Source: Candidatus Bathyarchaeota archaeon
GTDB taxonomy: Archaea > Thermoproteota > Bathyarchaeia > Bathyarchaeales > Bathycorpusculaceae
Assembly (NCBI GenBank): GCA_963811105.1
Contig: CAWEPZ010000009.1
Coordinates: 352,001 to 416,000, forward strand
Length of the DNA stretch: 64,000 nt
Direction: 5' to 3'
This document shows positions 41,616-58,972 of the stretch, one piece after another; positions within the stretch are counted from its first letter, which is position 1, and every line of letters starts with the position of its first letter. Below the pieces are notes generated by a model, which made no database searches, had not been told where the DNA came from, and saw only the letters and a list, made by a program, of their open reading frames with translations. The translations under genes were made by a program, and so were the position numbers.

Positions 41616-42005
41616 CTATTTGCTAAGTATTTCTTCTTCTTCCTGAATGAGCAAGGGCAAAGATTCTCCGTGGGTTTTTACAAAATGCGACATTTTTTGG
41701 ATTGAAAAATTGTAAGCAACAACGGCTTTTCCGAATTTTTCTTTTCCTGCCGAAGTTACCCGGTAAACCACTTTACCTTTTTGAAGGGTGGATTTTATTA
41801 ATTTGTCGTCTTCCAAGCAGTGCAGAAGAGGATAGAGCGAACCTGGGCTAAGCAATATACCAAATTCTTTGTGGAGGGTCGCAATTATCTTATATCCGTG
41901 CGTAGACTCGCCAGTTAATATAGCCATAATTACGATATCCAAAAAAGTCTTGAGATGCCTTTCAGCAATCTTATTTTCATACATCACATTTTGAAATGAA
42001 AGCAT
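41616..42005 (-). CDS. PadR family transcriptional regulator
   Basis: THGYKII...LSPGSLYPLLHCLE...YRVTSAGK. Confidence 0.88.
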   Translation of the reverse strand: MLSFQNVMYENKIAERHLKTFLDIVIMAILTGESTHGYKIIATLHKEFGILLSPGSLYPLLHCLEDDKLIKSTLQKGKVVYRVTSAGKEKFGKAVVAYNFSIQKMSHFVKTHGESLPLLIQEEEEILSK

Positions 42006-42053
42006 AATACGACACCTAACAGCAGTAGTTTAATGATACGCAACATATATATG

Positions 42054-42071
42054 CCATGAATTAACTCATGG
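42054..42071. promoter_or_regulatory. Inverted repeat CCATGA-N6-TCATGG upstream of the padR TATA-like box
   Basis: Perfect 6-bp arms adjacent to ATATATAT, about 50 bp upstream of the padR ATG. Confidence 0.4.
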
Positions 42072-42408
42072 AGGAATATTAAGACATAAACATTTATCAT
42101 TGATAAAAAAATTTAAATAAAAATGTACATTTTAAAGGCAAAACATTGATATTGTGAAACATCCTTCTTGGTCTTTATTGACAATACGGCTGTATTAGTT
42201 TTGTATTGTTGAGTAACTTGCTTTGGCGTTACTGAACCCAATGTTAGCGAAAAAACATGAATTCAAATTCAAATAGAGTCAGGGTACTAATAAGTAAATT
42301 AAATTAAGCTAATATTGTTGTAAGTAGCGAATTCTGCCAAAACAATTATGATCGTCCTAACTCCCCTCATCTCCTACAGAACATGATTCGCTAGTTTGAG
42401 GGAGGCAC

Positions 42409-42564
42409 ATGGAGGAAGTCTCAAAAACTATTTCCGAAATGAAACAAAGGATAGCGTCTAAACTTAGAGCGGCGAAAGCTGGTTCAAGAGATAAAGCAGT
42501 TACAACCCAAGAGACTGATTATGACGTACCAGAACAAAAATGGCTGGATTATATTCCTGGATGA
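42409..42564 (+). CDS. Small hypothetical protein (51 aa), below the ORF-track cutoff
   Basis: GGGAGG SD plus ATG; MEEVSKTISEMKQRIASKLRAAKAGSRDKAVTTQETDYDVPEQKWLDYIPG. Confidence 0.5.
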   Translation: MEEVSKTISEMKQRIASKLRAAKAGSRDKAVTTQETDYDVPEQKWLDYIPG

Positions 42565-43064
42565 TTGTTTGCTTTGGTAAAAAAGACACCTGACAAACGA
42601 TATCGTTGCAACTCTTTACTAAATTAGTTCACACAATACCAGATTGCTTGATCTTCTGATTTCCACGAACAGAAGAGATGTAACATATGTGTGATCTCTT
42701 TTAGGGCATCGATCCAGAAAACATTAATGTTAGAGCTAGCGACTAAATCATTAATTTAGCTATGATTGCTTCATTTCTGGTACTAAAGTGCATAGACTTT
42801 CTTTTTCATTCACAGCACATCTGGAAGATATTATCGGGACTCTCTTTTCAAGAAAGTATGACCAGCGAACCGTAAAATCTCTCTACTCGTGCAAAACGAT
42901 GCTACACGGATTATTACTGATCAGAACTTTTTGAAACAGATTTTGGTCAACTTGGTAATGAACTCTTCAAGCTTTAACTTCATGCGAAAAAATGAAGGTT
43001 CATGTTACTGTAACAAAAAACGCCTTTTTTATAATAGTGAAAGATCGTGTAACAACAAACCATT

Positions 43065-43670
43065 TTAAGTTAACTCGACCAAAATCTTTTCTTCAGCTTC
43101 TTTTGTTTTTTCTTCAAGCATTCTCTTCAATTCATAAACGGCTACAGTGTGAAGCAAAGCTACCTCAGTGTTTGAATTATCCTTCTCGATTAAAACTTGA
43201 AGGGGGCTACTCTTTTCTTCCAAGTTTTCGTTCATATCGAAAGATAAACTCTTTATTCTGTCGATAGCTGTCTCGAACAAAACCCTATTTGGCTTTTTCC
43301 TAAACAAGAACAACCTTTGGTTTGTAAGGTAAAGATAACCTGATCTCCAGACACCTGAATTAAACTTGTCTCGGCAATAGTGTGAACCAAATGTCTTTAG
43401 AATAATTTCTTCATTCTCATTTAACGGAGCTTCTTCATTACTTTCCGCTAATACGGATTTTCGAATCTGCTCATCCCATGTTCCCATCATGCCGTAATCA
43501 ACCATCGTTGTCAACCCAGCGATCGCGGCTTTCAAATTGATTCCAATTAAAGGAACTCCAGAAACCGAAATTATGACATCTGCATGAAGAATTACGCCTT
43601 TGACCAAGATTCTGTCAACAAGATCTACAAGAGCTCCATCTCTTGAAGGCAACAAATTAGTCTTCTCCAA
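43065..43670 (-). CDS. gvpM: GvpM-like (GvpA/J/M family) protein fused to a GRAM/PH-like domain
   Basis: LVDRIL.KGVILHADVIISVSGVPLIGINLKAAIAGLTTMVDYG...WD resembles haloarchaeal GvpM. The C-terminal W.SGYLYLTNQRLFLF is a PH/GRAM signature. Confidence 0.75.
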   Translation of the reverse strand: MEKTNLLPSRDGALVDLVDRILVKGVILHADVIISVSGVPLIGINLKAAIAGLTTMVDYGMMGTWDEQIRKSVLAESNEEAPLNENEEIILKTFGSHYCRDKFNSGVWRSGYLYLTNQRLFLFRKKPNRVLFETAIDRIKSLSFDMNENLEEKSSPLQVLIEKDNSNTEVALLHTVAVYELKRMLEEKTKEAEEKILVELT

Positions 43671-45583
43671 AATCAGCTTCTAGCAAAATAACAGTTTCTC
43701 TTAAGTTGCAGAACTCTTCAGTAACGCGTTCATATGGCGCTTCTTCAAGATTTTTTACCGAAGCTTGAAGTTTTTTCTTTTTCTCGTTCGAAAACTTTTC
43801 ACCTAATTTATCTTCCAATGCGGAAAGTAACATCTTTGCTTGACTTACTTTTTTCAACTTTGTACTCAACCCCTCCTTAAGTTCGAGAAGCTTACTACTA
43901 AGCTCTCGGACTGTTTGGAGCTCATGGTCGTTCATTGCCTCATTTAATCGGTTCAGCGCCATTTCAACCTGCCTCCTGTCTTTGTTTGAAATTTTTCCAT
44001 TAGTCTCTTCCAAGAATTTTTGTGTTGCGTAGATTGTAAAAGTTGCTCGATTTTGGTTTTCTATTAATTCCTTTTTTATCTCATCTTCTTCGATAAACTT
44101 GGTTGCTTCCATAATCCTTCTCATGAGTTCTTCCTGAGAAAGACTCTTAGTATCTGCCACTTTGGCAACTTCTAGTTTTCCTGTTTCTAAAATTTCCGCA
44201 GAAACAGTTAAAATACCGTTAGCGTCAATTTCGAACGTCACTTCCACTTTCTGTTCATATTTAGGTGCCTTAGGAATACCCTCAAGCTTAAACAAACCTA
44301 TGGACGTGTTATCCTTAGCCATCTCCCGATCACCTTGTAAAACATTAATCATCATAGATGTCTGGTCATCCTCTTGCGTTGCGAAAGTCATGTTTTCCTC
44401 TGTCGGAATAGTACTGTTTCGTTTGATTAGACGCGTAAATAATCCGCCAGAAGTTTCTACACCCAAAGACAGCGGTGTGACATCTAACAACAACATATCT
44501 CTAATTTCGCCATTCAAAATACTGGCTTGAACGCCAGCACCTGTAGCGACTATACCCATGGGGTCTATACCTATTTCTGGTTCCTTTTTAAAATAACTTC
44601 TAAAATATTCTCTAACACATGGAATTCGGGTGGGTCCACCTACTAAAATTAGATTATCTATATCTTCGAGATCCAAACCGGAGTCTTCTAAGGCTTGCTC
44701 CATGGGACCTTTCAGCCTATCAAGTTGAGGTTTGATTAATTCTTCAAGCTTATCCCGAGTTAAAGTTATGAACAAACTTGTTATGGAGTCGTTTACATTA
44801 ACCTCCGTTTTTGCTGTTGTCCATAATTCAGTTGAAAGTTGAATCTTTGCCATTTCGCCAGCATCTCTTAGTTTGTTCAAGTTCCTACAGTCATTTTCTA
44901 AGCGAACTTTGTACTTTCTTTCAACTTCTTCAATCAAGATAATCTAAAATAGCATCATCCATGTCTTTGCCACCCAGATGAATATCTCCGCTAGTGGACA
45001 TGACTTGGAATAAACCATTTTTCATATGCAGAATAGTCACGTCGAAAGTTCCAGCGCCTAAGTCCAACACAGCCACATTTAGGTTTCTTCCTGCCTTGCC
45101 TAAACCGTAAGCTAGAGAAGCAGCTGTGGGTTCACTGACTACTCTTAAAACTTCAAAACCCGCTATTTCTCCAGCTTCCTTAGTAGCGTTTCTTTGATTA
45201 TTATTAAAGTAGGCGGGCGCAGAGATTACTGCCTTGTCTATTTTCTCTCCTAAATAAGTTTCAGCGTCTCTTTTTATCTTCTTGAGTATCAAAGCCGAGA
45301 TTTGTTGAGGACTATAAACCGTGCCATCAATATTTTCAACATGATCTGTACCAATTTTTCTTTTGATCCACCTTATCGCTCGCTCAGGGTGCTCATACGA
45401 GTAGTTTTTTGCAGGTTTACCAACGAGGATTTCACCATCTTCTTTAAATGCAACAATAGAAGGGAACATTTTTCCGTTAGGAGTTGGATCTTCTGCAGCA
45501 GGGACAAGTCTTATTTTTCCATCTTTCATAACAGCGGCAGCTGAGTTAGACGTCCCAAGATCTATTCCAATGGTTCTAATCAT
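43657..45583 (-). CDS. dnaK: Hsp70/DnaK chaperone inside the gvp operon, split into ORFs 44930..45622 and 43657..44937 by a +1 frameshift (likely a sequencing error)
   Basis: IGIDLGTSNS, PAYFNNNQR, EPTAASLAYG, DLGAGTFDV, HLGG.D.D, LVGGPTRIP, LLLDVTPLSLG and FEIDANGIL motifs. The junction TAT-CTTG-ATT-GAA restores DYLIEE with one base removed. Confidence 0.9.
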
Positions 45584-45599
45584 AATGATCCCTTGAAGA

Positions 45600-46583
45600 T
45601 TATTTAGCCGCCTTTTCTTCAATTACTATATTTTCTTCGACATCTGTTTTCGTAATTGAGCAAAGGTAATGTTCACAGTATTTAGTCAGCAGAGCTTGTG
45701 CTTCCCTTATTTTCTTGAACATCTTTTCGCAGGATGGGTCATCTGGGTGAAGGTCAGGATGGTATCGACGTGCTAGACTGTTGTATGCCATGTTAATTTC
45801 AGAAATACTTACTTCTTGACTTAGACCCATGGTTTTTCTCGCTTCCTCCAATGAATCAAAATTTATCTTTTTTACACCTATTTTTGCAAAATTGTATGCC
45901 GGCAAGGGACCGACGGAAATAAACTTCAGGTAATTAACGTGTTTTTTCTCTAACTCATTCAGTTTATCATAAAAATCCTGTTCTCGACTTTTATCAATAA
46001 GGAAAGCAGCATCCAAGAGTGTTTCTTGATCAATTATTTTGTTTTCTTCTGAATCTACTGATAAGCTCTTCAGAGTGCGTGCAATACCTTCCAAGTATTC
46101 AATTTTTCTTTGATCCAGTTCAGCCTTGACTCTTTTCCCTAGCTCAATTTTGTGTGACTGATTAGCGTTTTCTTTGTTTTCGTTGACTAGTTTTCGGATT
46201 TCTGCATTTTGGTTTAAAATGTTTAAGAGCATACCTTTATCCCATGAAATTTTGACGTTAATTTGTAATTTGTGGTCGACCTTTTCCATAGTTTTTTTAA
46301 GCTTCATTCGACCATGTTTGAGAATGTTCCTTATCTCTTCATCGTCTTTGGCTATAGCTCCAAATCTCATTGGAATAACTGTATGAGGTTCCATGATTTT
46401 CCGTAAAACATCATCATGAATTCTCGCCTCTGCTCTCCCAATACAACAATTCTCGCCGATGTCGCTGACTATAACACCCATGTCTTCAAATTGAACACTG
46501 TATATTTCCCCATTATCCATTCCAATTCTGCCGAAGCTTTTTTGGCAATCAGAGTTGATGATTCCGTAAATGTATTTGGGCAT
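45600..46583 (-). CDS. GvpF/L family protein fused to a C-terminal J domain
   Basis: YIYGII, H..VL...M..TVIPMRFG and GPLPAYNF (GvpF/L), then LGL-like helix...AY..LARRYHPD..P...F..I..A (J domain with HPD). Confidence 0.85.
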   Translation of the reverse strand: MPKYIYGIINSDCQKSFGRIGMDNGEIYSVQFEDMGVIVSDIGENCCIGRAEARIHDDVLRKIMEPHTVIPMRFGAIAKDDEEIRNILKHGRMKLKKTMEKVDHKLQINVKISWDKGMLLNILNQNAEIRKLVNENKENANQSHKIELGKRVKAELDQRKIEYLEGIARTLKSLSVDSEENKIIDQETLLDAAFLIDKSREQDFYDKLNELEKKHVNYLKFISVGPLPAYNFAKIGVKKINFDSLEEARKTMGLSQEVSISEINMAYNSLARRYHPDLHPDDPSCEKMFKKIREAQALLTKYCEHYLCSITKTDVEENIVIEEKAAK

Positions 46584-46589
46584 TCATTC

Positions 46590-47399
46590 TCACCGGGTTC
46601 CTTTTATTTTTGATTCGCTTAACTGGCCTGCAAAAGAATATGGTGGCCAAGGTCCAGTGAACCTAACGACAAATCCTTCATTCTTCAAATGTCCTAGCGT
46701 ATTTCCTAAGCTCTTAATTTTTTCTTGTTGTGCAAGACAAGTTACGTTAAGAACCATTTGTTTGCCTTGCCATTTCCCATGAACTTCCCGGTTTATTGAA
46801 CCAAGTTTTATTTCCTCAACAAGCTTCTCGATTTGAGCGTACAAATTTCTTGCATGTCTATCTATGAAAAGCTGTTTTTCAAGTTGTATTTCTTTTTCTA
46901 ACTTTTTCTCAATCAGATAAGCAGCGCCCCTACTTGTGCTCTCTATTTTCTTTTTTAAACTCTGGATTTCTAACTTGTTATTTAGAGTTTCATCAATCAG
47001 GCCGTTTTCGAGGAAAATCTGAACACCATACTCGGCTTTTCCCTTAAGTTTCATTAGCAAAGTTTTGAGCTGAAAGTATTCTTTGCTGAGCCACTCTTTG
47101 AGCGTTTCGTCGTCTCCTTTGAAAATCGTGTCAAAAGTTAGAGGAATAACAGTTCCATATTCCTCAGTAGCCAGGTCAATCACAAATTGATGCGCCAAAA
47201 TCCATTCTCCGGCTTTCTCTTTTGATGTCGTTACATAAGGCTTTGTCTCACACGAATGGATGACTACTCCTATATCTTGGAAAGTTACAACACTAACATA
47301 GCTATCTTCAACGCCGACTTGTCCAAAATTCTTCTTATTTGCACTATTGATTATACAGTATAGGTATCTTCCTTCTCTGCACCTATTTTCTTGAATCAT
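46590..47399 (-). CDS. gvpL: Gas vesicle protein GvpL
   Basis: EGRYLYCII, W..AHQ.VID.A...GT.IP..FDT, EYGVQI, G.AYLIEKK and FTGPWPPYSFA motifs. Confidence 0.85.
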   Translation of the reverse strand: MIQENRCREGRYLYCIINSANKKNFGQVGVEDSYVSVVTFQDIGVVIHSCETKPYVTTSKEKAGEWILAHQFVIDLATEEYGTVIPLTFDTIFKGDDETLKEWLSKEYFQLKTLLMKLKGKAEYGVQIFLENGLIDETLNNKLEIQSLKKKIESTSRGAAYLIEKKLEKEIQLEKQLFIDRHARNLYAQIEKLVEEIKLGSINREVHGKWQGKQMVLNVTCLAQQEKIKSLGNTLGHLKNEGFVVRFTGPWPPYSFAGQLSESKIKGTR

Positions 47400-47718
47400 T
47401 CAAGTCACCGTTATTGTTTATATTTTCAGGATTAGTCATGACTTCAACTGTGTCTTCAACTAGTCTGTCAAGGTCAGTTCGTAAAGATTTAACAATAGAT
47501 TGGAGGCCATTTTCATCTATTATATGTTTGAGGGCTCCATCAAGCTCTCTTAGGCCATTTCCTAATCTTTCAATCTCCTCGTCGCTCAGTTTACCAGACT
47601 CCATTCTCCGCACAGCTTCTTTTTCAAGAACCTCTTGAATAATTTCAACTAAAGCAACAATTACTCCGATGAGACCCGATTTTAGGTCACTTTCATTAAT
47701 TTCTATAGGCATTGTCAT
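47383..47718 (-). CDS. gvpK: Gas vesicle protein GvpK
   Basis: GL..VIVALVEII...LEKEAVRRMESGKLSDEEIERLG..L. Confidence 0.92.
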   Translation of the reverse strand: MTMPIEINESDLKSGLIGVIVALVEIIQEVLEKEAVRRMESGKLSDEEIERLGNGLRELDGALKHIIDENGLQSIVKSLRTDLDRLVEDTVEVMTNPENINNNGDLNDSRK

Positions 47719-48238
47719 TTCCTCTTTTGATTAATTTTACTTCTAAAACACCGTTGTTGATTGTTTTGCTAATTTTCTCTTCAACAAGGCAAGGGAGAGG
47801 GACTTCTTTGTAGTATTCTTGCCCCGATATTATTAGATGAGAATCTGCTATTGTTACTTGGATGGTTTCTTCTTTTGAAGGCAACATCGTTACAACTCTT
47901 AAGAGGATTTTTTCATCTATTACATCTACCAACTCATCGTTATGAGTTATACCTACCAACTCTTCGTCTGCCCACCAACTAAATAAAATTTTTTTGCCAT
48001 TAGAAGAATCGATTTTTGATCGTTGGAAAGTGGCAATGGGTTTTCCAATGACTTCTTGCGCTTTTGGGTTTATGATTTCCCTAATTTTAATAAGCACTTC
48101 CATATCCGAAGAGGCGCAAATCAGGTTTGTTAATTGCTTTATCCCTGCATGACGCTCTTTTATAAGATATATTGTTATATGCCTGCTTTTCTCGTCTAAA
48201 GTGTTAAGGAGCAGATCAAGTTTGTTCAGCGTACTCAA
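47696..48238 (-). CDS. wHTH-like domain plus Hsp20/alpha-crystallin domain (GvpH-like)
   Basis: C-terminal VDV..E...VV..LP...LIISG..Y.KEVPLP...NNGVLEVKL; N-terminal LDEKSR.I..YL...HAGIKQL. Confidence 0.7.
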   Translation of the reverse strand: MSTLNKLDLLLNTLDEKSRHITIYLIKERHAGIKQLTNLICASSDMEVLIKIREIINPKAQEVIGKPIATFQRSKIDSSNGKKILFSWWADEELVGITHNDELVDVIDEKILLRVVTMLPSKEETIQVTIADSHLIISGQEYYKEVPLPCLVEEKISKTINNGVLEVKLIKRGNDNAYRN

Positions 48239-48630
48239 CTGCGAACACCCACCTTAGATGCAACTTTTAATCCTTTTTGTTTCTTAGCTCTTGCGCTCTC
48301 CCATCCGCACCAAGGGCAAGCAAAATCCAACAATTCTTGCCTGTTAACCTGTTTGGAACATTGAGGGCAATCTTCTTTTTGTATTGAAGCGTCTTTCCAA
48401 GCAGCTGTTTCCAAATTGGTTCCTAATGGAAATTCTAGCCCGTATTTCGCAGCGGTTTCAAAAGAGGCAAGTGCAGCTCTGATTTTTATTCCTAGCAGCT
48501 CAACTCCAGCAACGCTAATAACTATGTCTGCGTTGATTACTAGTCCTTTATCTAGGATTCTATCTATAGCGTCCGCCAATCCTGAATGTTCTTTTTCGGG
48601 AGTTAAAGTAATGCTATCCAAGTTTTTCAT
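48235..48630 (-). CDS. gvpJ: Gas vesicle protein GvpJ with a C-terminal Zn ribbon
   Basis: LAD.IDRILDKGLVINADI.ISV..VELLGI.IRAALASFETAAKYGLEFP.GT (haloarchaeal GvpJ type); CPQC...CPWC. Confidence 0.9.
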   Translation of the reverse strand: MKNLDSITLTPEKEHSGLADAIDRILDKGLVINADIVISVAGVELLGIKIRAALASFETAAKYGLEFPLGTNLETAAWKDASIQKEDCPQCSKQVNRQELLDFACPWCGWESARAKKQKGLKVASKVGVRS

Positions 48631-48950
48631 TCCTTATTTTGTCCATATATCCAACCACACCAAGGGCACTCGCTTTTGAATTCTTCTTGAGTGGATTCTC
48701 GGTCGCAAATTGGACAAGCGTGCTTTGCGGCTAAAATTCTCCATGATGCTGTGTTCAAATTAGTGTTTTCAGGAAATTTCAAACCTATTTGCTTAGCCGT
48801 TTTAAATGATGAAAGGACGATACGTGATTTAGTGTCCAAAAGATCAATGTTGCTAAAACGAATCCTCGCATTTGAGTCAACTGTAACGCCCTTATCCATT
48901 ATTACGTCTAATACGCTGTTCAGAGTAGCATTTCGGGTTCTATTTGTCAT
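48627..48950 (-). CDS. Divergent second GvpJ-like protein with a Zn ribbon
   Basis: GGAGG SD before ATG 48950; L..VLD.IMDKGV.V...LSSFKTAKQIGLKFP..T; CPIC...CPWC. Confidence 0.75.
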   Translation of the reverse strand: MTNRTRNATLNSVLDVIMDKGVTVDSNARIRFSNIDLLDTKSRIVLSSFKTAKQIGLKFPENTNLNTASWRILAAKHACPICDRESTQEEFKSECPWCGWIYGQNKE

Positions 48951-49105
48951 CAATGAGAGATGCCTCCTTGAGATTGATTGATGCCCCATTCATTTGAAAA
49001 TGTAGTTAAGGCTGTCAATTTAGTCGCCTCGCGAAAACATTTTAAGACTTGTTGATAAGAGTGCCTTTTTCTGTTTATCTTTCATTACATTTTGCTCCTT
49101 TAAAT

Positions 49106-49396
49106 TCAACCTAATATGTTCATCCTCTGGCTGGGGCCCACTGTAAATAATCGTTTGTTCATCAATCGTTGATGGCAAAGCGTTTTGTCGCGCGTTTCGT
49201 ATTCTTCTTTTGTTATTTCGCCCAGTTCAAAGAGTAGTCTGTTTTCTCTTAATCCATCGTTAATTCTCTTCTGATTTTCCTTAAATCTTCCCTCATCAGC
49301 GTAATCCATGATTGTTTCCATAAGCCAGATCATATCAAATGGAGGAAAGGAAAGACCAATCATTTCTAAAAAAAGGTCGTCTACAAAAAATGGCAT
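49106..49396 (-). CDS. gvpG: Gas vesicle protein GvpG
   Basis: FFVDDLF...I.D.LRENRLLFELGEITKEEYE; directly follows gvpF. Confidence 0.85.
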   Translation of the reverse strand: MPFFVDDLFLEMIGLSFPPFDMIWLMETIMDYADEGRFKENQKRINDGLRENRLLFELGEITKEEYETRDKTLCHQRLMNKRLFTVGPSQRMNILG

Positions 49397-50061
49397 TAGA
49401 TTGCACCATTTCTTTTCTTAACTTCTACACCATCTGTGCCAATTCTAATGTACACAAAGTTATGGGGCGCCCAAGGTCCGCTATAGAGGAACTTTAAAGT
49501 TTGATACTTGTTTTTAAGTCTAACAACCTCATTCGAAAATGATTCTATTTGTTCTTTGCCGACTAAGAAGGAGGCATTCAAAATGAGTCTTCCACTAAAT
49601 AAGTCGCATGCAACTGCTTGTTTTGCTTTGGCTTTCAATGATTCTAAGATTTCTGAGGCGTACTCCTTTTTCTCGTAGGTATTGGCAAAAAGGTTTTTTT
49701 CAATTTGAACAACCTTTACTCCGAGTTCAACTGTGTTTTCAACAAGCTTTAGCGACTCCACTGTGGAATTATAGGCTTTTTTGAGCAAACGTTTTAGGAT
49801 TATTTCGTTTTTTATTGTTGTTCCGAATTCGGTTGGAACAACAGAGTACTTTTTCATGATTTCTTGCATGACGTTCTCATGTTTCGTTGTATTGTCTTCA
49901 GTTAACTCGTAATCTTTCATTGGAGAATCACTAACTACTGCTGCAATGTCTCGGCATAAAATGGTGTAGACTTCGTTATTTTCCAAGCCTACCCTACCGA
50001 AATTCTTTTTTTCACTACAATTTATTGCACAATAGAAGTATTTTCCGTCTTCTGTTTTCAT
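49396..50061 (-). CDS. gvpF: Gas vesicle protein GvpF
   Basis: GKYFYC, IAAVVSD, HE.V...VVP..FG, ELGVKV and SGPWAPHNFV motifs. Confidence 0.85.
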   Translation of the reverse strand: MKTEDGKYFYCAINCSEKKNFGRVGLENNEVYTILCRDIAAVVSDSPMKDYELTEDNTTKHENVMQEIMKKYSVVPTEFGTTIKNEIILKRLLKKAYNSTVESLKLVENTVELGVKVVQIEKNLFANTYEKKEYASEILESLKAKAKQAVACDLFSGRLILNASFLVGKEQIESFSNEVVRLKNKYQTLKFLYSGPWAPHNFVYIRIGTDGVEVKKRNGAI

Positions 50062-50079
50062 TTGTTTACCCTCTAAATG

Positions 50080-50907
50080 CTAAATTTCCAGTTGTAAGTA
50101 GTGGTTTAGAGCTTTGTGAGCTTGAATATGCTCGTAAACCATGCTTCTTATTCTCGGTTTAGCGTCTTCTACTGGACCGTAGACTATTTCCTTGCCTGAT
50201 TTCGTGATTTTCAATAGTCCTTTTTGTTTCAAAGAATGAAGAAGCGGGTATATAGTTCCTGGACTAAGTAAAACGTTGAACCTCAAATGAATGGTTCCTA
50301 TTATTTCGGTGCCGCACATCATTTGTTTTTGTAGAATAGACAAAATTAGATTTTCCAAGTTATCTTTCACTATTTTTTCAACGGATTTACCCGATACCCT
50401 CGAGTCATCGAAGAAATCTCCAGATAATATTGTCAGGTCATTTGTTGTTAGGCGAAGTTGATTGTGATATAAGGCTAATTGTTTAATTTTTTCAAAACTG
50501 AATCGTGATAGGTCGTAGGTACATAGACAGTTTATAGAGCGTTTTTTGCTCAATTCGTTCAGATAGTTTTCTCTTTTCTCGATTTCAGCTTCTTCTTGAT
50601 TGTCTAACGATCCTGCATCTACAATAAGTTGCAGATCATTACTTTCCTTTTCGAAACTGTAAATATCACGTGGATTGACAATTTCTAGTTGAATGTTTGG
50701 GTGATTGAATTCTTGTGCCAGGGATGAGCTATCGACATTGGTAACGTAGATTATTTTTTGATTTTGTCGAGTTGCTGGTATTAAGAACGCGTTTTGAATC
50801 GTGTATTTATCAACATTTGGAGCATACAGGTGGAGTGTATGGTTTGAGGTTCTTTTGTCCATGCTCGAAAATTGCTTGGAAGAATTGAAAAGGGAAGCTG
50901 TTTCCAT
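50080..50907 (-). CDS. MEDS-like sensory domain plus PadR wHTH regulator (GvpE-like)
   Basis: N-terminal H.LHLY...E.RE..LN....CLCTYD.......L..H (MEDS); C-terminal LE.LIL..L....CG..II...F.VLLSPGTIYPLLH.L. Confidence 0.75.
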   Translation of the reverse strand: METASLFNSSKQFSSMDKRTSNHTLHLYAPNVDKYTIQNAFLIPATRQNQKIIYVTNVDSSSLAQEFNHPNIQLEIVNPRDIYSFEKESNDLQLIVDAGSLDNQEEAEIEKRENYLNELSKKRSINCLCTYDLSRFSFEKIKQLALYHNQLRLTTNDLTILSGDFFDDSRVSGKSVEKIVKDNLENLILSILQKQMMCGTEIIGTIHLRFNVLLSPGTIYPLLHSLKQKGLLKITKSGKEIVYGPVEDAKPRIRSMVYEHIQAHKALNHYLQLEI

Positions 50908-50935
50908 AGTTGTTTCCTTCGTAGTTAGTGCATTT

Positions 50936-51217
50936 TTATTCCTCTGTTGCTTCAGAGGTAATTAGATCGCCGCGTTTTCTGATCATTTTTTGTGTCCATC
51001 CGATTAACTCCGCGTCTTTGCTTATTCTAAATAAATACCTGCCTAGCAGGTCTTGAGTATCCGGTATTGCTTTTCTTTGCAGCACTTCCAATGTCACTGC
51101 CCATTCGCCATTTTTTTCTTTGATGTCAACTATAATCTCGGGATTTTTAGAAATGAACCTCTTTGCGGCGTCAAACGCTACCTCAGTAATTTTTGATAAA
51201 GAATTATTCTCGTTCAT
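50936..51217 (-). CDS. gvpO: Gas vesicle protein GvpO
   Basis: W.VTLEVL.RKAIPDTQDLLGRY......RG; follows gvpN. Confidence 0.88.
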   Translation of the reverse strand: MNENNSLSKITEVAFDAAKRFISKNPEIIVDIKEKNGEWAVTLEVLQRKAIPDTQDLLGRYLFRISKDAELIGWTQKMIRKRGDLITSEATEE

Positions 51218-51231
51218 TTTTTTTATCCCCT

Positions 51232-52305
51232 TTAGATAGATTCTTGAGTTTGGCAGACGTTGACTTCTGGAATTATTAAATCGATGCCGTTCTTCTGAAT
51301 TTTCGAGTGAGTATCGTTTAGAATTTCTCTTATGACGTCTGTTTTGTTAAGAGTCTCAATTTGGTTACCGATTTTACTTGCGAGAACATCTATGCAAATT
51401 TGTAAAAATTCCTCTCTTGAATAATTGCCCATCGCTTTAAGACCTTTAGAAATCATTATTTCGGCTCGCGTACCTGGTTTGTGTTGTTCGGGCAGTTTTT
51501 CTCTTAGTGTACGAACAATTTTGACAATGTTTTTTGCCTCAAGGGGTGATATATTAGAATGCGCTACAACAATCTTTACTTCTGTGTCAAAGTCATAATA
51601 GTCCATGTGGAGATCTATCATTCTGTCTAGTAAAGCATCTTGAGGTCTATGTACACCAGCATATTCGATAGAGTTGCTTGTGAATATTACCTTAAAATCA
51701 GGATGAACTTGTACGTATCTTTCTTCTCCAAACATAGTCGGAAGTTCTAATATGTGTTCTTCGAGTACTGATAGAAGAACGTTGTTAGCCTCGGGTTTTG
51801 ATCTTGAGAACTCGTTATAAATTAATGTGTAACCGTATTTGCAAGCGAGCGTTAACGGATTGTCAATCCAGCTATATTTTGTCTTATTCTTGGTTAATCT
51901 GACGTTATGAATATATTTGTCCACTAGACTTTCGGCCTCCATTTCTGAGTATCCTCCGATTAAGTCTGACGTTGTTATCTGATCATCACCGTTTATCCAC
52001 ACTGTTGGTCTGCCCAATTCTTTTGCTACTTGCATCGCCATTGTTGTTTTTCCACAACCTGTTGGCCCAACGATGTGGGGGTGGCATGCAGCTTTAAGCC
52101 AGAGTCTAATTCTGTTCTTTAGTTTTCTAACCTGTTCGGTTTCAATAAAACTTTCAATCGTAGGGATTAAGAACTCTGTTTCTGCTTTATTTATTGTGAT
52201 TTCTAAGGGTGTTATTTTCTCGGAAATTTTGATTTTCCTTTCTTTTGATGTTTCATGAACTCTTTTTCCGCGAACAACTCTTGGATGAGTTGGATAATAT
52301 TTCAT
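51232..52305 (-). CDS. gvpN: Gas vesicle AAA+ ATPase GvpN
   Basis: H..GPTGCGKTT, DLIGGY, WIDNPLTLAC..G.TL.YNEFSRSKPEANNVLLSVLEE, and TSN..EYAGVH..QDALLDR. Confidence 0.94.
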   Translation of the reverse strand: MKYYPTHPRVVRGKRVHETSKERKIKISEKITPLEITINKAETEFLIPTIESFIETEQVRKLKNRIRLWLKAACHPHIVGPTGCGKTTMAMQVAKELGRPTVWINGDDQITTSDLIGGYSEMEAESLVDKYIHNVRLTKNKTKYSWIDNPLTLACKYGYTLIYNEFSRSKPEANNVLLSVLEEHILELPTMFGEERYVQVHPDFKVIFTSNSIEYAGVHRPQDALLDRMIDLHMDYYDFDTEVKIVVAHSNISPLEAKNIVKIVRTLREKLPEQHKPGTRAEIMISKGLKAMGNYSREEFLQICIDVLASKIGNQIETLNKTDVIREILNDTHSKIQKNGIDLIIPEVNVCQTQESI

Positions 52306-52523
52306 GTTTTTAAGTCCTCGGTATTTTTCTTATATACACGAATGTTGCGACAATCCTTTTAAGGTGTATTCAGATACGTGTTACGAAAACTGTGTCAAAA
52401 ATCGAAAGTCGACTCAAAAACTATTTTAATTCGATTTCAGAATAATTTTGTAAACAATTTCAATCAAAAATTTTCCTTGAATAATAATAAATTGGAATTG
52501 GGAAAAGAGGGTTCCTCAAACTC

Positions 52524-52685
52524 TCAAGTTTTTTCCTTTTTGAGGGCGTTTACCCATAACATACGTACTCTCTGTGGACGCGGAACTACCGAACAATATT
52601 GTACCATTTCTCTATGTTTTCTTAACCACTTTATTTTCTTATCCCTTTCTTGTGCGTTAACAGCGCTTTTTGGCATTTTTGACAC
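52524..52685 (-). CDS. Small basic hypothetical protein between gvpC-like and gvpN
   Basis: GGGGGTG SD; MPKSAVNAQERDKKIKWLRKHREMVQYCSVVPRPQRVRMLW; co-oriented with the operon. Confidence 0.45.
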   Translation of the reverse strand: MSKMPKSAVNAQERDKKIKWLRKHREMVQYCSVVPRPQRVRMLWVNALKKEKT

Positions 52686-52790
52686 CAATTCACCCCCTAG
52701 TTGGATCACTTTCCCGATTGATTATTCTCAATTAATACTGAAAAAAAGAAATATGGACAAGAAACAGTTTATTCTACAGATGAGGCGCAC

Positions 52791-53162
52791 TCATCCGTAG
52801 AATTGTTTCGTGTATTCTTGGTGTTGTTTTACTTGATCAGCTATACTGACTTGCATGGCAGCAATACCTGAAACCATTTCAGCGACACCAGATTGCAGAT
52901 TTCGTGTACCATCAGCGTGCATTTTTTTGGCGGCTTCTTGGAAGTTTATAGCGGTTTGATGGATACTTTTCTGCATCTCACAAACTCCTGTTAACAGATT
53001 GTTGATTCCTTCGATACGCATTTCATTGGCAGCTTCTTGGAAGTTTATAGCGGTTTGATGATAAAGTTTTCTTTTGCCATTAACGGTATTTGTATTTGTT
53101 GCTGGTGTTTTGGTTGGTTCAGTTACTGGGCCTGTTTGATTTTTCGTTTTATGTTTAGACAT
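52791..53162 (-). CDS. gvpC: GvpC-like repeat protein
   Basis: Lies between gvpA and gvpN; two 33-aa repeats (HQTAINFQEAA..M...G..NL..GV.EM); ends Y...FYG. Confidence 0.6.
   Translation of the reverse strand: MSKHKTKNQTGPVTEPTKTPATNTNTVNGKRKLYHQTAINFQEAANEMRIEGINNLLTGVCEMQKSIHQTAINFQEAAKKMHADGTRNLQSGVAEMVSGIAAMQVSIADQVKQHQEYTKQFYG
52933..53060. repeat. Exact 29-bp direct repeat with a 99-bp period within the gvpC-like gene
   Basis: GCTTCTTGGAAGTTTATAGCGGTTTGATG at 52933..52961 and 53032..53060. Confidence 0.95.
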
Positions 53163-53213
53163 TTATTTTTCAACTCAAACTTGTTTATTCTTTAAACTAT
53201 TTTTTTCCTAGAT

Positions 53214-53441
53214 TTAGGCTGCTGGAACAGGAGCAGCGATTGCTGCTTGCTCGACCTTTGTGATTTCTTCTGCGTAATGGAGGAATGTATCGACTGAGGC
53301 GACTACCACTCTGGCTTCGATTGTGAGAATTTCGATTCCAACCAATGAAGCCCTTGCCCAAGCATCGACGACTATGCCTTTGTCGAGTACGCGATCGAGT
53401 ACTTCTGCCAAACTACCTGAATCTGGACTTTGTTGCACCAT
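53214..53441 (-). CDS. gvpA: Major gas vesicle structural protein GvpA
   Basis: GAGGTG SD; [55 protein letters not shown], close to haloarchaeal/methanosarcinal GvpA. Confidence 0.97.
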
Positions 53442-53536
53442 TTTTAATTCACCTCTCAAGACATGGATTTGTTTTCTGTATCTTGAGTATGATATATTGC
53501 TATTTAAGCAGTATTCAGCAATAAAGAACAAGGATC

Positions 53537-53553
53537 GTATCGAGAATCGATAC
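53537..53553. promoter_or_regulatory. Perfect inverted repeat GTATCGA-GAA-TCGATAC upstream of the gvpA TATA box
   Basis: 7-3-7 palindrome about 30 bp upstream of minus-strand TTAAATA (53500-53506). Confidence 0.5.
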
Positions 53554-53722
53554 TTGAAATATTACAATTTGCACAACAATCCCATAACTAAAGTAAGACC
53601 TAAATTATCTCACACACAATTAAAACTTAAAAAGTGACCAGAATTAAGTGCTTTAATAAAGAACATTTGGAAAATAGATTTAACCATCTAAAATTTGATA
53701 CAATAATAGAAAGTGAATAATT

Positions 53723-54289
53723 GTGTGGCTAATATGTCGGGTAGCATTCAATAGGGGCAAAACCAAATTGCTAGTCCGGGGTACCCAAGATGCAGAATGG
53801 GTTTTTTGCCCAAGGACAAAAAGCATAAAAAACGACAAAGTAACCATCCAATGTTGCGACGAATGTGCCCATTTTGTTCGTCTTGAACACTTCTCTCTCC
53901 CGCAAACACAGGCTTGGAAACGCAGCATCATGCCAAAACATCCCAACTACCTACATTTTAGAAAACCGCCGATCAATCGCTGGAGTTCTAAACGACAAAC
54001 AATATTGGCACCATCCCATTCAATGTTAAGCTTTAGAGTCGAAAAGCAACCACTATTAGACGTCTTTGAAGAGGATGACTGTGTAGTAGTTTTAGCAGAA
54101 TTGCCGGGTATGGAAGAAAAAGATGTAAATATCGAAGCCGACGAAACTACTGTGACAATTACTGCGAAAAACTCAGTTAGGACCTATCTAAAGAAGATAA
54201 AACTTCCAACGCCAATTCTAAGTAGTGAGGTGGAGATCATTTATAGGAACAACATTTTGCAGGCAAAGTTAAAAAAACTTAAAGATTAA
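53723..54289 (+). CDS. Hsp20/alpha-crystallin protein with an N-terminal Cys cluster
   Basis: PLLDVFEE....VLAELPG.E..DV...Y.K.I.LP...YRNNIL; N-terminal CPR...CCDEC.HF. Start codon uncertain. Confidence 0.8.
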   Translation: MWLICRVAFNRGKTKLLVRGTQDAEWVFCPRTKSIKNDKVTIQCCDECAHFVRLEHFSLPQTQAWKRSIMPKHPNYLHFRKPPINRWSSKRQTILAPSHSMLSFRVEKQPLLDVFEEDDCVVVLAELPGMEEKDVNIEADETTVTITAKNSVRTYLKKIKLPTPILSSEVEIIYRNNILQAKLKKLKD

Positions 54290-55053: not shown

Positions 55054-57243
55054 GTGTCAGAATCTGCTCCAACCTCAAATTCGATAACACTGCGCGTTTC
55101 TGAAGCCTCACTAAGAGACTTCGGTCGAGGAATAGCAAGAATAGATCCCCAAGCAATGAAGGAAATTCAAGCTCAAACAGGCGACATCATCCAAATCACC
55201 GGAAAAAAAAGAACCGCCGTAAAAGTTATGCCCTCTTACCCAGAAAACCGGGGAAAAAACGTTGCTCAAATCGATGGAATAATACGTAATAATGCTTTAA
55301 TTGGAATCGGCGACACGGTCTGTGTAGAAAAAATTAAGGCTGAAACTGCAGAAAAAATAACGCTTGCACCACTCGAGCACGACCAGTCATGGCGAGGAGG
55401 AGACAAACCCTTAGAACATGTACGTAATCTTCTAGATGGCTTAGCGGTGGTTGAAGGAGATCAGGTCCGACTAAGCCTTTTAGGGTCAAACGCCTCCTTT
55501 GTTGTAGCCAGAATCAAACCAAACTGTCCAGTAGCTATACTTCACTCTACAACGGAGATAGTTATACTTGAAAAACCAGCACAAAACGGAAGAAAAATTG
55601 GCGCCACATATGATGATATCGGGGGGTTATCTGAGCAGATTCAGCGGACGAGAGAAATGATTGAACTTCCTCTTCGGCATCCAGAAGTGTTTGATCGCCT
55701 TGGAATAGAACCGCCAAAAGGGGTCTTACTACATGGCCCTCCAGGCACAGGAAAAACTCTTATTGCAAAAGCTGTAGCAAACGAAACTTTCGCTACTTTC
55801 ATCAGCATCAGCGGTGGAGAAATACATGGAAAGTACTACGGTGAATCTGAAGCCCGCTTAAGAGAGATATTTACCGAGGCATCTCAGAACAAACCTTGTA
55901 TCATATTTATTGATGAGATCGACGCAATAGCCCCAAAAAGAGAAGAAGTCACAGGTGAAGTCGAAAAAAGAGTAGTGTCCCAATTGTTATCGTTGATGGA
56001 CGGGCTAGAACCACGCGGACAAGTAGTGGTTATTGGGGCAACAAATAGACCCAACGCAATTGACCCTGCTCTGCGGAGAGGCGGACGGTTTGACCGAGAA
56101 ATAGAGATAGGTATGCCAACAAGAGAAGGGCGGTTTGATATTTTCCAGATTCATACTCGAGGCATGCCGCTTACTTCTGACGTAGATTTAACGAATCTGT
56201 CTTCATTAACACACGGCTTTACAGGTGCAGACATTACAGAGCTCTGTAAAGAAGCAGCCATGAAGTCTCTAAGACGAGTTTTGCCGGAAATAAACTTTGA
56301 AGCTGAATTTATTGCCACAGACATCCTTAACAAACTGGTAGTAACGATGGATGATTTTCAGGACGCATTGCGGTTTGTTGAACCCTCAGCTTTACGAGAG
56401 GTTTTAATTGAAACACCTAATGTCACATGGGAGAACATAGGTGGACTCCATGAACTAAAACAAGAACTTATCGAAGCTATTGAATGGCCTCTAAAATACG
56501 CTGACATTTTTAAAGAAGCTGGAGCAAAACCGCCCAAGGGAATAGTTCTTTGTGGACCTCCAGGCACAGGGAAGACTCTTTTAGCGAAAGCGGTTGCCAA
56601 AGTAAGTCAAGCAAACTTTATCCACGTCAAAGGTCCAGCGCTTATGAATAAATTTGTTGGTGAATCAGAGAAGGGTGTAAGAGAAATATTTCGGAAAGCT
56701 AAACAAACAGCGCCATGTATCATTTTCTTCGATGAAATAGATGCCTTGGTTCCTAAGCGAGGAAGCGGATTAACTGATGCTCACACCTCGGAAAGGGTCA
56801 TAAGTCAATTTCTTACAGAATTGGATGGGCTAGAGGAACTTCGCGGCGTTATGGTTCTAGCAGCGACAAATCGTATTGACATAATTGATCCTGCTTTACT
56901 GAGACCTGGACGGTTCGACCTTATTCTACAAGTTCCGCCCCCAGATGCTGATGCAAGGCTCGAAATTTTCAAGATACATAGCGCAAAGAATCCTCTAGCA
57001 AATGATATCTCCTTTGAGAAATTGGCTGAAGAAACAAAAAGCTGTACCGGAGCTGACATAGACGCAATCTGCCGAGAAGCTACTATGTTTGCTATCAGAC
57101 GTTTTCTTAACAAAAATACGACAGATTTAACCAACTTAAAACCGACTAAACTTGAAGTAACAATGGAAGATATGATAATAGCAATCAAACAGATGAACAA
57201 TCGTAAAAAATTGATTGAACGCTCAGGAGCAGAAGCTGACTGA
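55054..57243 (+). CDS. cdc48: CDC48/VAT family AAA+ ATPase
   Basis: N domain (D.GRGIARID), two GPPGTGKT Walker A motifs, FIDEID/FFDEID, and ALRR.GRFD / LLRPGRFD. Confidence 0.95.
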
Positions 57244-58217
57244 TGAAAAAATCGTTTTTATTAGAAACTGAAGATGCAAGCAGCCAAAATAACCTCTCTA
57301 AATCAATGCAAGAGCGGATTAATCAAGTCCTCGGAGATGTCCATTTGAGAATGGTTGAGTTGTTCAATGTTGATTTCACTTTTTTTAAAAGCTTTAAATT
57401 GTTGAGGCGTCAAGAATTTCAAAATCAATTGGCCCAACGGATACAAGACGATCTAAAAGAAAGTGGTATAGAAAGCAGCGGTACTCAATTGGGACAAATT
57501 ACTCAAGTTCTTGCGCGAGATCAAGCGGCTGGCGTATCTGAACATTTTGCTTTTTATAATCTCAAAAATGATAACCTGTATTTAAACGAAGACATGGCCA
57601 TAAATTACCCGGAAAAAGTGGTTTCGGTGTGTGCCCACGAACTTGCCGAAAAACTTCTTTCAACTTGCATATCCTTGCCGCCAAATTCGTCAATGCGATC
57701 TGCTGTGAAGCTATATCTCGAAGTAAAGAACATTAGTGATCCCGAAAGGCTTCAGCAGATTTTAGATATATATTTTGAGACTATTTTCAAGGCTGTCTTT
57801 AAAGAGGGTGCTTGTGAGGCAATAGCAGTTCACGTTATGCGTAACATGAATTATGCGACTGAAGCAGCTATTTTAGAAGAAGAATTGAAGGAAGGTTATA
57901 CAAAATGTTCAGGGCTCTTATCACGTATTGAAAATATAAGAAAAACCGTGATGACATCGAAGGTTATCCAACTGGACAGTAAAGTGTTGGATGAACAAGT
58001 AATAGTTGAGGAAGTTCTGAAGAACTCGCAGATAATTAAAGGTGTTTCGTACTATTTGGGCTATCCGCTTGCAAGAGTAGTTCTAGAAAAATATGGACTT
58101 TATGGTATGCGTTTTATCGTAGAGAACGCTTTGCCGCTCAAAGCGGAATATTTCTCAAATCCAGAATCCTACCTTGTCACATTAGATAAGATACTTTCTA
58201 AACAAATGGAGAAATAA
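57243..58217 (+). CDS. Hypothetical protein with a degenerate zincin-like motif
   Basis: AFY....LYLN...CAHELAE...FKEGACE...YYLGY; translationally coupled to cdc48. Confidence 0.6.
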   Translation: MKKSFLLETEDASSQNNLSKSMQERINQVLGDVHLRMVELFNVDFTFFKSFKLLRRQEFQNQLAQRIQDDLKESGIESSGTQLGQITQVLARDQAAGVSEHFAFYNLKNDNLYLNEDMAINYPEKVVSVCAHELAEKLLSTCISLPPNSSMRSAVKLYLEVKNISDPERLQQILDIYFETIFKAVFKEGACEAIAVHVMRNMNYATEAAILEEELKEGYTKCSGLLSRIENIRKTVMTSKVIQLDSKVLDEQVIVEEVLKNSQIIKGVSYYLGYPLARVVLEKYGLYGMRFIVENALPLKAEYFSNPESYLVTLDKILSKQMEK

Positions 58218-58222
58218 AACAG

Positions 58223-58972
58223 ATGGTTAAAAAAGAAAAAAACGGAAATACTTCAGGAGAAAAAACCATTGGAGCGTTAAAAAAGGAAGTCGCAAAGAAA
58301 GGAAAAGAAATTGAGGAGCTACAAAAATCCGTAGCCGAGATGCGAACTCAAATTCAGAAAAAAGATAAAATTGTGGACCCTCCTGAACCAGATAAAATGG
58401 TCGACGGGCTCATGAACGTCGGTTTTGGGTTACTTGGCTCGTCAAATGCTGCAAATGGTCAAAAGGCCAAAGGTTTGCTGGGTTTAGTCGACGAGTTAGG
58501 TAAGTTGGCGGAGAAAACCCAGATGACTCAGACAACGCAGAAGAGAATTAATTTTGGAAAAGGAGGCGTAGTTGACTTTCGAGTAAGTTCCCGACCAATA
58601 AAAGGTGGTTCCTCACTTCAACCTGCGAGTCGATCGAAAATCGGAACACTTATCAAACAATCCTCAAGCACATATGCCCCCATGCCACTTGCAGCAGGAA
58701 CCATAAAAGAAAGAGAACTTATCGTTGACATCTTTGAAGAAGAAGATTGCCTCCATGTAATGGTGGAACTGCCTAATGTCAAAGAAAACGAAATATCCCT
58801 AGACGTAGAAGGCAATACTCTAACAATAAAAGCTGGCACTCAGAATAAAGAATACTTCAAGAAAGTTGAGCTCCCTGCTACTGTCGAAAAAAAAATAGTT
58901 GAATCAAGTTGCCGCAATGGAATCCTTGAAGTTAGGCTAAAAAAGAAAACCATTGCCAATCAGACCAAGTAG
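58223..58972 (+). CDS. Coiled-coil plus Hsp20/alpha-crystallin protein
   Basis: RELIVDIFEE...VMVELPNV..I...Y.K.VELP...NGILEVRL. Confidence 0.85.
   Translation: MVKKEKNGNTSGEKTIGALKKEVAKKGKEIEELQKSVAEMRTQIQKKDKIVDPPEPDKMVDGLMNVGFGLLGSSNAANGQKAKGLLGLVDELGKLAEKTQMTQTTQKRINFGKGGVVDFRVSSRPIKGGSSLQPASRSKIGTLIKQSSSTYAPMPLAAGTIKERELIVDIFEEEDCLHVMVELPNVKENEISLDVEGNTLTIKAGTQNKEYFKKVELPATVEKKIVESSCRNGILEVRLKKKTIANQTK

Follow-up and report, generated by a model that had tools for sequence, protein, structure and literature searches.

The window analysed here is a stretch of 64,000 nucleotides of contig CAWEPZ010000009.1 (assembly GCA_963811105.1, forward-strand positions 352,001-416,000), and all coordinates given below are positions within it. 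It contains a compact gas-vesicle (gvp) operon on the minus strand, running from approximately 52305 to 43065, which was delineated from the list of open reading frames (ORFs) together with Pfam and NCBIfam matches. The order of the operon is GvpN, GvpO, a MEDS/PadR regulator, GvpF, GvpG, two GvpJ/M-like proteins, an Hsp20-like protein, GvpK, GvpL, a fusion of a GvpF/L-type protein to a J domain, an Hsp70 (DnaK) and a GvpM-like protein. The fusion and the adjoining Hsp70 are the subject of this report, and it would seem probable that they act together as a pair dedicated to Gvp proteins. The features of the two genes are:

45600..46583, minus strand: GvpF/L-J-domain fusion ('FLJ'), 327 aa (Pfam GvpL_GvpF and DnaJ, AlphaFold2 model, Foldseek)
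45885..46577, minus strand: GvpF-fold domain of the fusion, residues 3-233, the presumed client-binding part (Pfam, Foldseek)
45684..45833, minus strand: J domain of the fusion, Pfam residues 251-300, model helices 242-305 (Pfam, AlphaFold2 model)
44930..45583, minus strand: N-terminal part of the gvp-linked dnaK, from ATG 45583 to a premature TGA at 44930-44932 (Pfam HSP70)
44935..44937, minus strand: frame break, a single base more than in all close relatives (near-strain contigs, orthologue P0121)
43657..44934, minus strand: C-terminal part of the gvp-linked dnaK, with the remainder of the nucleotide-binding domain, the linker, the substrate-binding domain, the lid and a clade-specific tail (Pfam HSP70)

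The J-domain fusion is real. Its product matches Pfam GvpL_GvpF (PF06386) over residues 3-233 with 172.6 bits (cut-off 23.6, E 1.9e-50) and DnaJ over residues 251-300 with 45.5 bits (cut-off 27.8, E 7.9e-12), and the HPD tripeptide lies at residues 275-277 (codons 45753-45761, within ARRYHPDLHPDD). A preliminary description of the locus had recognised a third GvpF/L paralogue ending in a J domain with an intact HPD, and this is borne out, the other two paralogues of the cluster being those at 49396-50061 and 46590-47399. Against the NCBIfam equivalogs the fusion scores 83 bits for GvpF (cut-off 350) and 47.5 bits for GvpL (cut-off 200); its non-J part is closer to GvpF than to GvpL yet falls under both cut-offs, and it is therefore regarded as a third type of paralogue. 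An AlphaFold2 model, for which 149 relatives served as input (mean predicted local distance difference test (pLDDT) 92.5, predicted template modelling score 0.82), consists of a GvpF fold and a J domain. Foldseek matched the model to crystal structures of GvpF (4qsg and 6l5d; E 7e-16, TMt 0.75-0.80) and its C-terminal part to J domains, including that of DnaK-bound DnaJ (5nro_B, TMt 0.83, root-mean-square deviation 1.9 over 58 columns), which together with the model helices at 242-305 gives the four-helix J fold. An alignment of 43 diverse fusions shows no variation at H275 and D277, P276 in at least 90% of the sequences, and conservation of a short tail behind the J domain, YCxxxxCSFxxxDV.

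Fusions of this kind are widespread. There are 246 close homologues, and all 120 among the matches listed carry both domains; among the best 150 representatives at 50% identity, 138 have both parts and 134 of these have the HPD. One representative is named from a Methanocellales archaeon, and the ESM Atlas holds 13 'DnaJ/GvpL_GvpF' clusters in Bacteria (Pseudomonadota, Chloroflexota and Actinomycetota), the architecture having already been named automatically in databases. Longer proteins that join the J-fusion to DnaK were sought among 5514 candidates and none was found at E <= 0.001, which is weak evidence, and a scan of genome contigs with the fusion protein alone returned only two bacterial loci, each with a match to the J domain only (L008, L009). 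A separate observation concerns a giant repeat protein of 3494 aa (P0340), in which 14 separate stretches match residues 35-127 of the GvpF/L domain.

The Hsp70 gene which follows the fusion consists of two ORFs in different frames, 44930-45622, which covers Pfam HSP70 up to position 234, and 43657-44937, which covers positions 235-591. Combined they match the full-length profile, but not in a single uninterrupted frame. Residues 14-229 of the N-terminal piece align to residues 1-212 of Mycobacterium tuberculosis DnaK and residues 1-366 of the C-terminal piece to residues 240-603 of Escherichia coli DnaK, so that the pieces abut exactly, and the shift between the frames comes from a single surplus base at about 44935-44937 ('...gat tat ctt gat tga' versus 'ttg att gaa gaa'). 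Across the site the closest intact orthologue (P0121) has ...DYLIRDVEDKY. The likely start is ATG 45583, 16 nt beyond the fusion stop where 17 bp had been given before, and with the extra base discounted the product has 641 aa; the DnaK of about 640 aa described previously is thus an Hsp70 of that size, although not one ORF. The stop of dnaK is at 43657-43659, and alignment of orthologues makes TTG 43655, 1 nt after that stop, the more likely start of the GvpM-like gene; the overlap of the two genes that had been reported would hold only for a start at TTG 43670. The ATPase motifs and the linker are kept (IGIDLGTSNS, PAK, SEPTAA, DLGAGTFD and DMLLLDVTPLSLG; linker DVTPLSLG), and the residues of these motifs presumably have their usual catalytic roles.

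That the junction be verified in sequencing reads had been proposed from the outset. Nineteen public sequencing runs, all of DNA, share sequence with the window (word share at most 0.22), and four runs from two studies were aligned to 43600-46600. The resulting contigs differ from the window by about 5% and are therefore from related strains and not from the window's own. All five contigs that bridge the site (from the four runs) have one base fewer at 44935/44936, a further contig (X3) which ends at 44937 is likewise one base shorter, and this missing base is the sole insertion or deletion reported over 3001 bases relative to the near strains. The check has thus shown the extra base to be absent from near strains, the runs not being of the strain itself. 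Among 40 listed differences from the near strains, outside which there are 200 more, 26 are synonymous and 14 are not (22 and 10 within dnaK), and this mostly synonymous divergence implies that dnaK has been under purifying selection along most of it. No other split gene is visible among 56 further ORFs scanned in the window, and all other gvp genes are intact. The extra base is due either to an error in the assembly or to a mutation that arose very recently in this strain alone. A gvp-type DnaK gene call of 470 aa on another, 72-kb contig (P0159) begins inside the nucleotide-binding domain at MLDLGAGTFDV and is perhaps interrupted too, or was called from a wrong start.

The conservation of the pair was assessed in a class sample of 401 genomes, the window's own (G000) included. 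The fusion is present in seven of these, which are the same seven that have any GvpL/GvpF gene, and in one of the 40 other genomes of the genus. In each of the six other fusion-bearing genomes the next gene downstream of it encodes an intact DnaK of 630-645 aa; the six belong to two families, their fusions are 30-61% identical to that of the window, their gene order is the same, and a GvpM-like gene follows DnaK in five of the six. In addition 80 metagenome loci were fetched (10-row alignment search) and grouped by their identity to the window's fusion, not by their content. Twenty-one of these are close (51-63% identical); 20 of them have the whole fusion and 16 have at least 300 nt downstream of it, and in 16 of 16 DnaK adjoins the fusion. 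Across the six relatives and these 16 loci the intact DnaK has 630-652 aa. The co-occurrence of the J-domain protein with dnaK that had been put forward for examination is therefore complete among relatives and close loci (6/6 and 16/16); the more distant loci differ, as described below.

The genome to which the window belongs also has a grpE-dnaK-dnaJ locus with an intact DnaK of 638 aa, on the same contig and about 337 kb from the gvp cluster, plus one more J protein, and neither grpE nor dnaJ lies adjacent to the gvp-linked gene. The gvp copy is therefore the second Hsp70 of the genome, 46% identical to the housekeeping one; the earlier statement that this is not the housekeeping locus is correct, and the case that would have told against a private system, that of the only dnaK in the genome, does not apply here. 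Housekeeping DnaKs are likewise found in three of the related genomes (G187, G355 and G162). A fourth, G008 (1.6 Mb, 100% complete by markers), has the gvp-linked DnaK as its only Hsp70 and the fusion as its only J domain, and a search of it for GrpE found none; with no other Hsp70 present, the J domain of the fusion can there only work with the neighbouring DnaK. The presence of Hsp70 is patchy in the phylum as a whole (54 of 121 sampled genomes).

A maximum-likelihood tree separates 22 gvp-type DnaKs, which comprise the seven gvp-linked ones and 15 full-length sequence hits (every eighth), from 33 housekeeping DnaKs of the phylum, that of the window's own genome included, by a branch with support 100/100. 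The preliminary description had called for the housekeeping gene and a tree; the gene was found, and the tree places the gvp-type proteins in a clade of their own. Eighteen positions are fixed differently between the two groups. RIINEPTAA has become RIVSEPTAA (22/22 versus 33/33), and we take the N to S position to be N170, part of the J-contact surface; DLGGGT has become DLGAGT (21/22), the surroundings of the catalytic lysine are altered, and the pocket residue V436 is M (21/22, numbered by alignment to E. coli DnaK), with T437M and A429Q in addition in the window's protein by the same alignment. In place of the disordered G/P/Q-rich tail of ordinary DnaKs the clade has a conserved ...KLKEMxxLLEADxGE. 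By NCBIfam the intact orthologue from G187 passes PRK00290 narrowly (656.8, cut-off 648) and is below the cut-off of TIGR02350 (647, cut-off 822.55), whilst the housekeeping DnaK passes both. Within the housekeeping group, the DnaK of the window's own genome and eight others of the 33 sampled have SFGGGT instead of the usual DLGGGT at the phosphate-2 motif.

The residue that follows the HPD also varies. It is hydrophobic in all 20 close fusions (L in 17, M, V and F in one each) and K or R in 42 of the 59 distant ones, whereas the second Bathyarchaeia family has HPDE, HPDD and HPDK, so that the hydrophobic pattern is not uniform there. The alignments give a hint, and not a rule, that this residue may have co-evolved with the altered DnaK.

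A J domain with an HPD binds to Hsp70 in the ATP state and sets off hydrolysis, by which the client brought by the other domain of the J-protein is trapped. In haloarchaea GvpF is reported as the only direct partner of GvpA and as binding, early in the assembly process, to the N-terminal half of the free protein (PMC7688916); PMC11445434 proposes GvpF as a transient chaperone of GvpA2 in the Bacillus megaterium system. It is on what is understood of J domains together with these reports of GvpF and GvpA that the fusion is read as an adaptor which brings GvpA, or the GvpA-like J/M proteins, to Hsp70. We consider it probable that the fusion and the DnaK form a J-protein/Hsp70 pair that is devoted to Gvp clients and helps to build vesicles. 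The fusion would be a specialised co-chaperone of gas-vesicle formation, the GvpF-fold domain of which would bind a hydrophobic shell-type Gvp protein, most likely GvpA and possibly the GvpJ/GvpM-like proteins. The C-terminal J domain would then pass the client to the DnaK whose gene begins 16 nt further on, and would trigger ATP hydrolysis, and the client might be held or remodelled until its insertion into the growing shell. The DnaK, as a member of a separate gvp-linked clade which travels with the cluster, would make the cluster self-sufficient in archaea, where Hsp70 is patchy, and the pair would apparently work without a dedicated GrpE.

The remaining genes of the cluster and its surroundings, among them the likely client, are:

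46590..47399, minus strand: GvpL, next to the fusion on its upstream side (NCBIfam GvpL equivalog, 220.9 bits, cut-off 200)
43065..43655, minus strand: GvpM-like protein, directly after dnaK (Pfam Gas_vesicle 9.7e-13; NCBIfam haloarchaeal GvpM, 88.6 bits)
49396-50061, minus strand: first GvpF/L paralogue of the cluster (Pfam)
47383..52305, minus strand: GvpN, GvpO, MEDS/PadR regulator, GvpF, GvpG, two GvpJ/M-like proteins, 180-aa Hsp20-like protein and GvpK (Pfam, NCBIfam)
53214..53441, minus strand: GvpA, 76 aa counted from M31 of its ORF, just upstream of the operon (ORF scan)
55054..58972, plus strand: CDC48-type AAA+ ATPase, 324-aa protein and Hsp20-domain protein, divergent from gvpA (ORF scan)

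The genes around the cluster are archaeal (Nre, fibrillarin, Nop5, TrmB and CDC48), and the nearest named homologues are from Candidatus Bathyarchaeia or Bathyarchaeota. The module of the CDC48-type ATPase, the 324-aa protein, to which no Pfam or NCBIfam family is assigned, and the Hsp20-domain protein is possibly part of the same proteostasis set as the fusion and its DnaK. It is also found beside the gvp clusters of G187 and G225 and thus recurs in two families. The distant metagenome loci, of which there are 59 (27-36% identical to the window's fusion, and with the fusion inside a gvp cluster in all), include 21 with a CDC48-type AAA+ ATPase and 12 with ArsA/Get3-like ATPases, and Hsp20 proteins are present as well; in nine of the 26 with room for it the CDC48-type gene immediately precedes the fusion. 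Sites of the module are L022 (1204-5047) and L017 (19020-19901), and CDC48 and Hsp20 genes lie directly upstream of the fusion in distant loci such as L089, L109 and L141.

Several other features of the cluster were observed. The GvpM-like protein (43065-43670, minus strand) has a C-terminal extension of about 130 aa with a weak match, below the cut-off, to the Pfam Vps36 GLUE domain (PH-like, E 0.0076); the long form is present in four of six relatives and a form of 80 aa in two. The two adjacent GvpJ/M-like proteins (48235-48989, minus strand) end in tails rich in Cys (CPxC ... CPWCGW) and resembling zinc ribbons, and one of them has a weak match to HypA. The MEDS and PadR-type regulator (50080-50907, minus strand) lies inside the operon between gvpO and gvpF and is conserved in relatives, as is a small PadR gene (41616-42005, minus strand) which flanks the cluster. 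The G+C content is 0.36-0.39 over the gvp region and 0.40-0.44 in its flanks (window 42001-54000), and no tRNA gene that could mark the border of an island was found within the window. The cluster is possibly an accessory, transferred island, which both the lower G+C and the presence of the cluster in only one of the 40 other genomes of the genus would fit.

A number of observations weigh against a dedicated pair that builds vesicles. The dnaK of this window is interrupted, and the aligned runs, being only of related strains, are silent on whether this is an error or a mutation; the private Hsp70 system that had been put forward thus has conserved adjacency and a clade of its own behind it, and a broken gene in this very genome. 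In the maximum-likelihood tree the end branch of the window's DnaK is 0.22, compared to 0.089 for its sister P0121, which would fit some relaxation of constraint and leaves a recent mutation open. The tree was made without a bacterial outgroup and gives neither root nor origin of the clade, and 15 of its 22 gvp-type rows were taken as sequence hits whose gene neighbourhoods were not checked one by one. The prediction of the client is weak by the calibration of the tool itself: residues 1-240 of the fusion together with GvpA score 0.42, the best of three controls scoring 0.02, with contact agreement between runs of at least 89% and a partner pLDDT of at least 59. The mark is reached by 116 of 157 solved complexes and two of 215 mismatched pairs, and scores of 0.60 or less comprise only 18 of the 157 solved complexes and both of the mismatches that pass. 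Finally, among the distant loci DnaK adjoins the fusion in one of the 51 with room downstream and occurs anywhere in two of 59, so that the fusion does not in general require a private Hsp70. The DnaKs of those two loci (L084 and L112) are of the ordinary type, alongside HPDR fusions, and thus represent separate recruitments and not members of the gvp clade.

The interruption may be taken at face value, in which case the dnaK of this strain would be a genuine, recent pseudogene, a condition that the preliminary description had named as refuting its reading, and the fusion could still use the housekeeping DnaK, or else the whole gas-vesicle system would be decaying. There is an appreciable chance of this, albeit the lesser one: the break is present in the assembly, the absence of any other split gene among the ORFs scanned suggests that the assembly is not riddled with indel errors, the end branch is the longer of the two sisters, a housekeeping DnaK is at hand, and distant fusions mostly do without a DnaK of their own. 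Against this, a single extra base is all that separates the gene from an intact one and an isolated base error would look alike, the other gvp genes are intact, the differences from near strains are mostly synonymous, and each of the five near-strain contigs is intact at the site. That the break is functional, as a programmed +1 frameshift or as a DnaK deliberately split into two polypeptides, was also considered on account of the TTG start of the second ORF, which overlaps the stop of the first. It is most improbable and was rejected because no relative shares the break, the frame being continuous in 6/6 genomes, 16/16 close loci and 5/5 near-strain contigs; moreover the split falls inside the nucleotide-binding domain, and the zero frame has neither a stop nor a known slippery context at the shift site.

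Alternatively the pair could be private as proposed and work in the opposite direction, extracting or disaggregating GvpA-type proteins from collapsed vesicles or aggregates, perhaps with the neighbouring CDC48-type unfoldase and Hsp20. The presence of such genes beside the cluster here, in G187 and G225 and in distant loci would suit this role, as would the succession of a lattice-binding domain and a C-terminal J domain, which resembles auxilin. We regard it as unlikely, given that no result separates extraction from assembly, that PMC7688916 reports GvpF on free GvpA early in assembly and that the pair sits among assembly genes in the gene order. It is less likely still that the DnaK is a general-purpose Hsp70 which merely rides in the gvp cluster, for example as the general chaperone where none other exists. 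G008, in which it is the only Hsp70 found, and the patchiness of Hsp70 in the phylum could be understood in this way; however, in the class sample the gvp-linked DnaK was found only beside the fusion, in every one of the seven genomes with gvp genes, G000, G187, G355 and G162 have a housekeeping DnaK as well, the sole J domain of G008 is the one fused to a GvpF fold, and the substrate pocket is changed.

The dedicated J-protein/Hsp70 pair for vesicle building may be an instance of something broader, which we offer as conjecture and would ourselves rate as doubtful. GvpF/L-fold proteins might in general be Hsp70 client adaptors for the amyloid-like shell protein, such that many bacterial and archaeal clusters would couple the insertion of GvpA to ATP hydrolysis by way of a fused J domain, and clusters of the Bathyarchaeia type would have added an orthogonal, GrpE-independent Hsp70 of which the J-contact surface and the substrate pocket have co-evolved with the fusion (S for N in RIINEPTAA, and the residue after the HPD). 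If true, this would be the first prokaryotic Hsp70 machine dedicated to building a protein-shelled organelle.

How the approximately 10 accessory Gvp proteins assemble a gas vesicle is still not known. PMC11445434 proposes that GvpF chaperones GvpA, which is very hydrophobic, and offers no mechanism for this; neither Hsp70 nor DnaK is mentioned in that paper (0 occurrences). A GvpF-fold protein with a J domain beside its own Hsp70 would provide this idea with a concrete and testable mechanism. As judged by titles and abstracts, with subscription journals and supplementary files outside the search, no published account of a gvp-linked DnaK or of a J-domain Gvp protein was found. What is new here, the comparisons suggest, is that a dedicated Hsp70/J pair, in itself a known arrangement, would serve a gas-filled protein organelle. 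Proteotoxic stress and chaperone capacity are said in PMC12848028 to limit the heterologous expression of gas vesicles and with it their use as acoustic reporters, and the fusion/DnaK pair may help such expression. It would also appear that archaea, which in many cases have no Hsp70, can acquire one as part of an accessory gene cluster.

Whilst the individual parts of the pair are familiar, their combination differs from each of the systems with which it can be compared. With the canonical DnaK-DnaJ-GrpE system it shares the Hsp70 ATPase motifs, the linker, the architecture of the substrate-binding domain and a J domain with HPD; the gvp clade is separate from canonical DnaK, falls below the TIGR02350 cut-off, differs at 18 group-specific positions and has a conserved C-terminal tail of another kind, and the fusion is without the G/F, zinc-finger and C-terminal domains of DnaJ. 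The GvpF and GvpL proteins that have been studied in Halobacterium, B. megaterium and cyanobacteria are of the same Pfam family and fold as the fusion, but have not been described with a J domain, and the fusion is below the NCBIfam equivalog cut-offs of both. TopJ of the Mycoplasma terminal organelle is similarly a J-protein devoted to building one cellular structure and has a weak NCBIfam match to the J domain of the fusion, although the likeness is confined to that domain (22 bits), and TopJ uses the housekeeping DnaK.

The likeness to auxilin and Hsc70 that was drawn in the preliminary description holds as an analogy of architecture: in auxilin/GAK a domain that binds a lattice or coat precedes a C-terminal J domain, which brings Hsp70 to a protein shell. 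Auxilin is however eukaryotic, works with the general Hsc70 in disassembly and has no homology to the fusion outside the J domain, whereas the Hsp70 here is a private paralogue. A nearer prokaryotic analogue is provided by HscA-HscB (Ssq1-Jac1 in mitochondria), the Hsp70 and J-protein of Fe-S cluster assembly, where the gene of a specialised Hsp70 paralogue lies next to that of a J-protein which recognises one family of clients through the part outside its J domain. HscA is reported to work without GrpE, to which G008, where no GrpE was found, may be likened, the other genomes having GrpE at the housekeeping locus. The two systems differ in that the client domain here is a GvpF fold, the J domain stands at the C-terminus, a gas-vesicle shell protein takes the place of IscU as the presumed client, and the gvp Hsp70 is closer by NCBIfam to DnaK (656.8 bits) than to HscA (488 bits). 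By analogy, the closest working counterpart of the gvp-linked pair would nevertheless seem to be HscB/HscA rather than auxilin/Hsc70.

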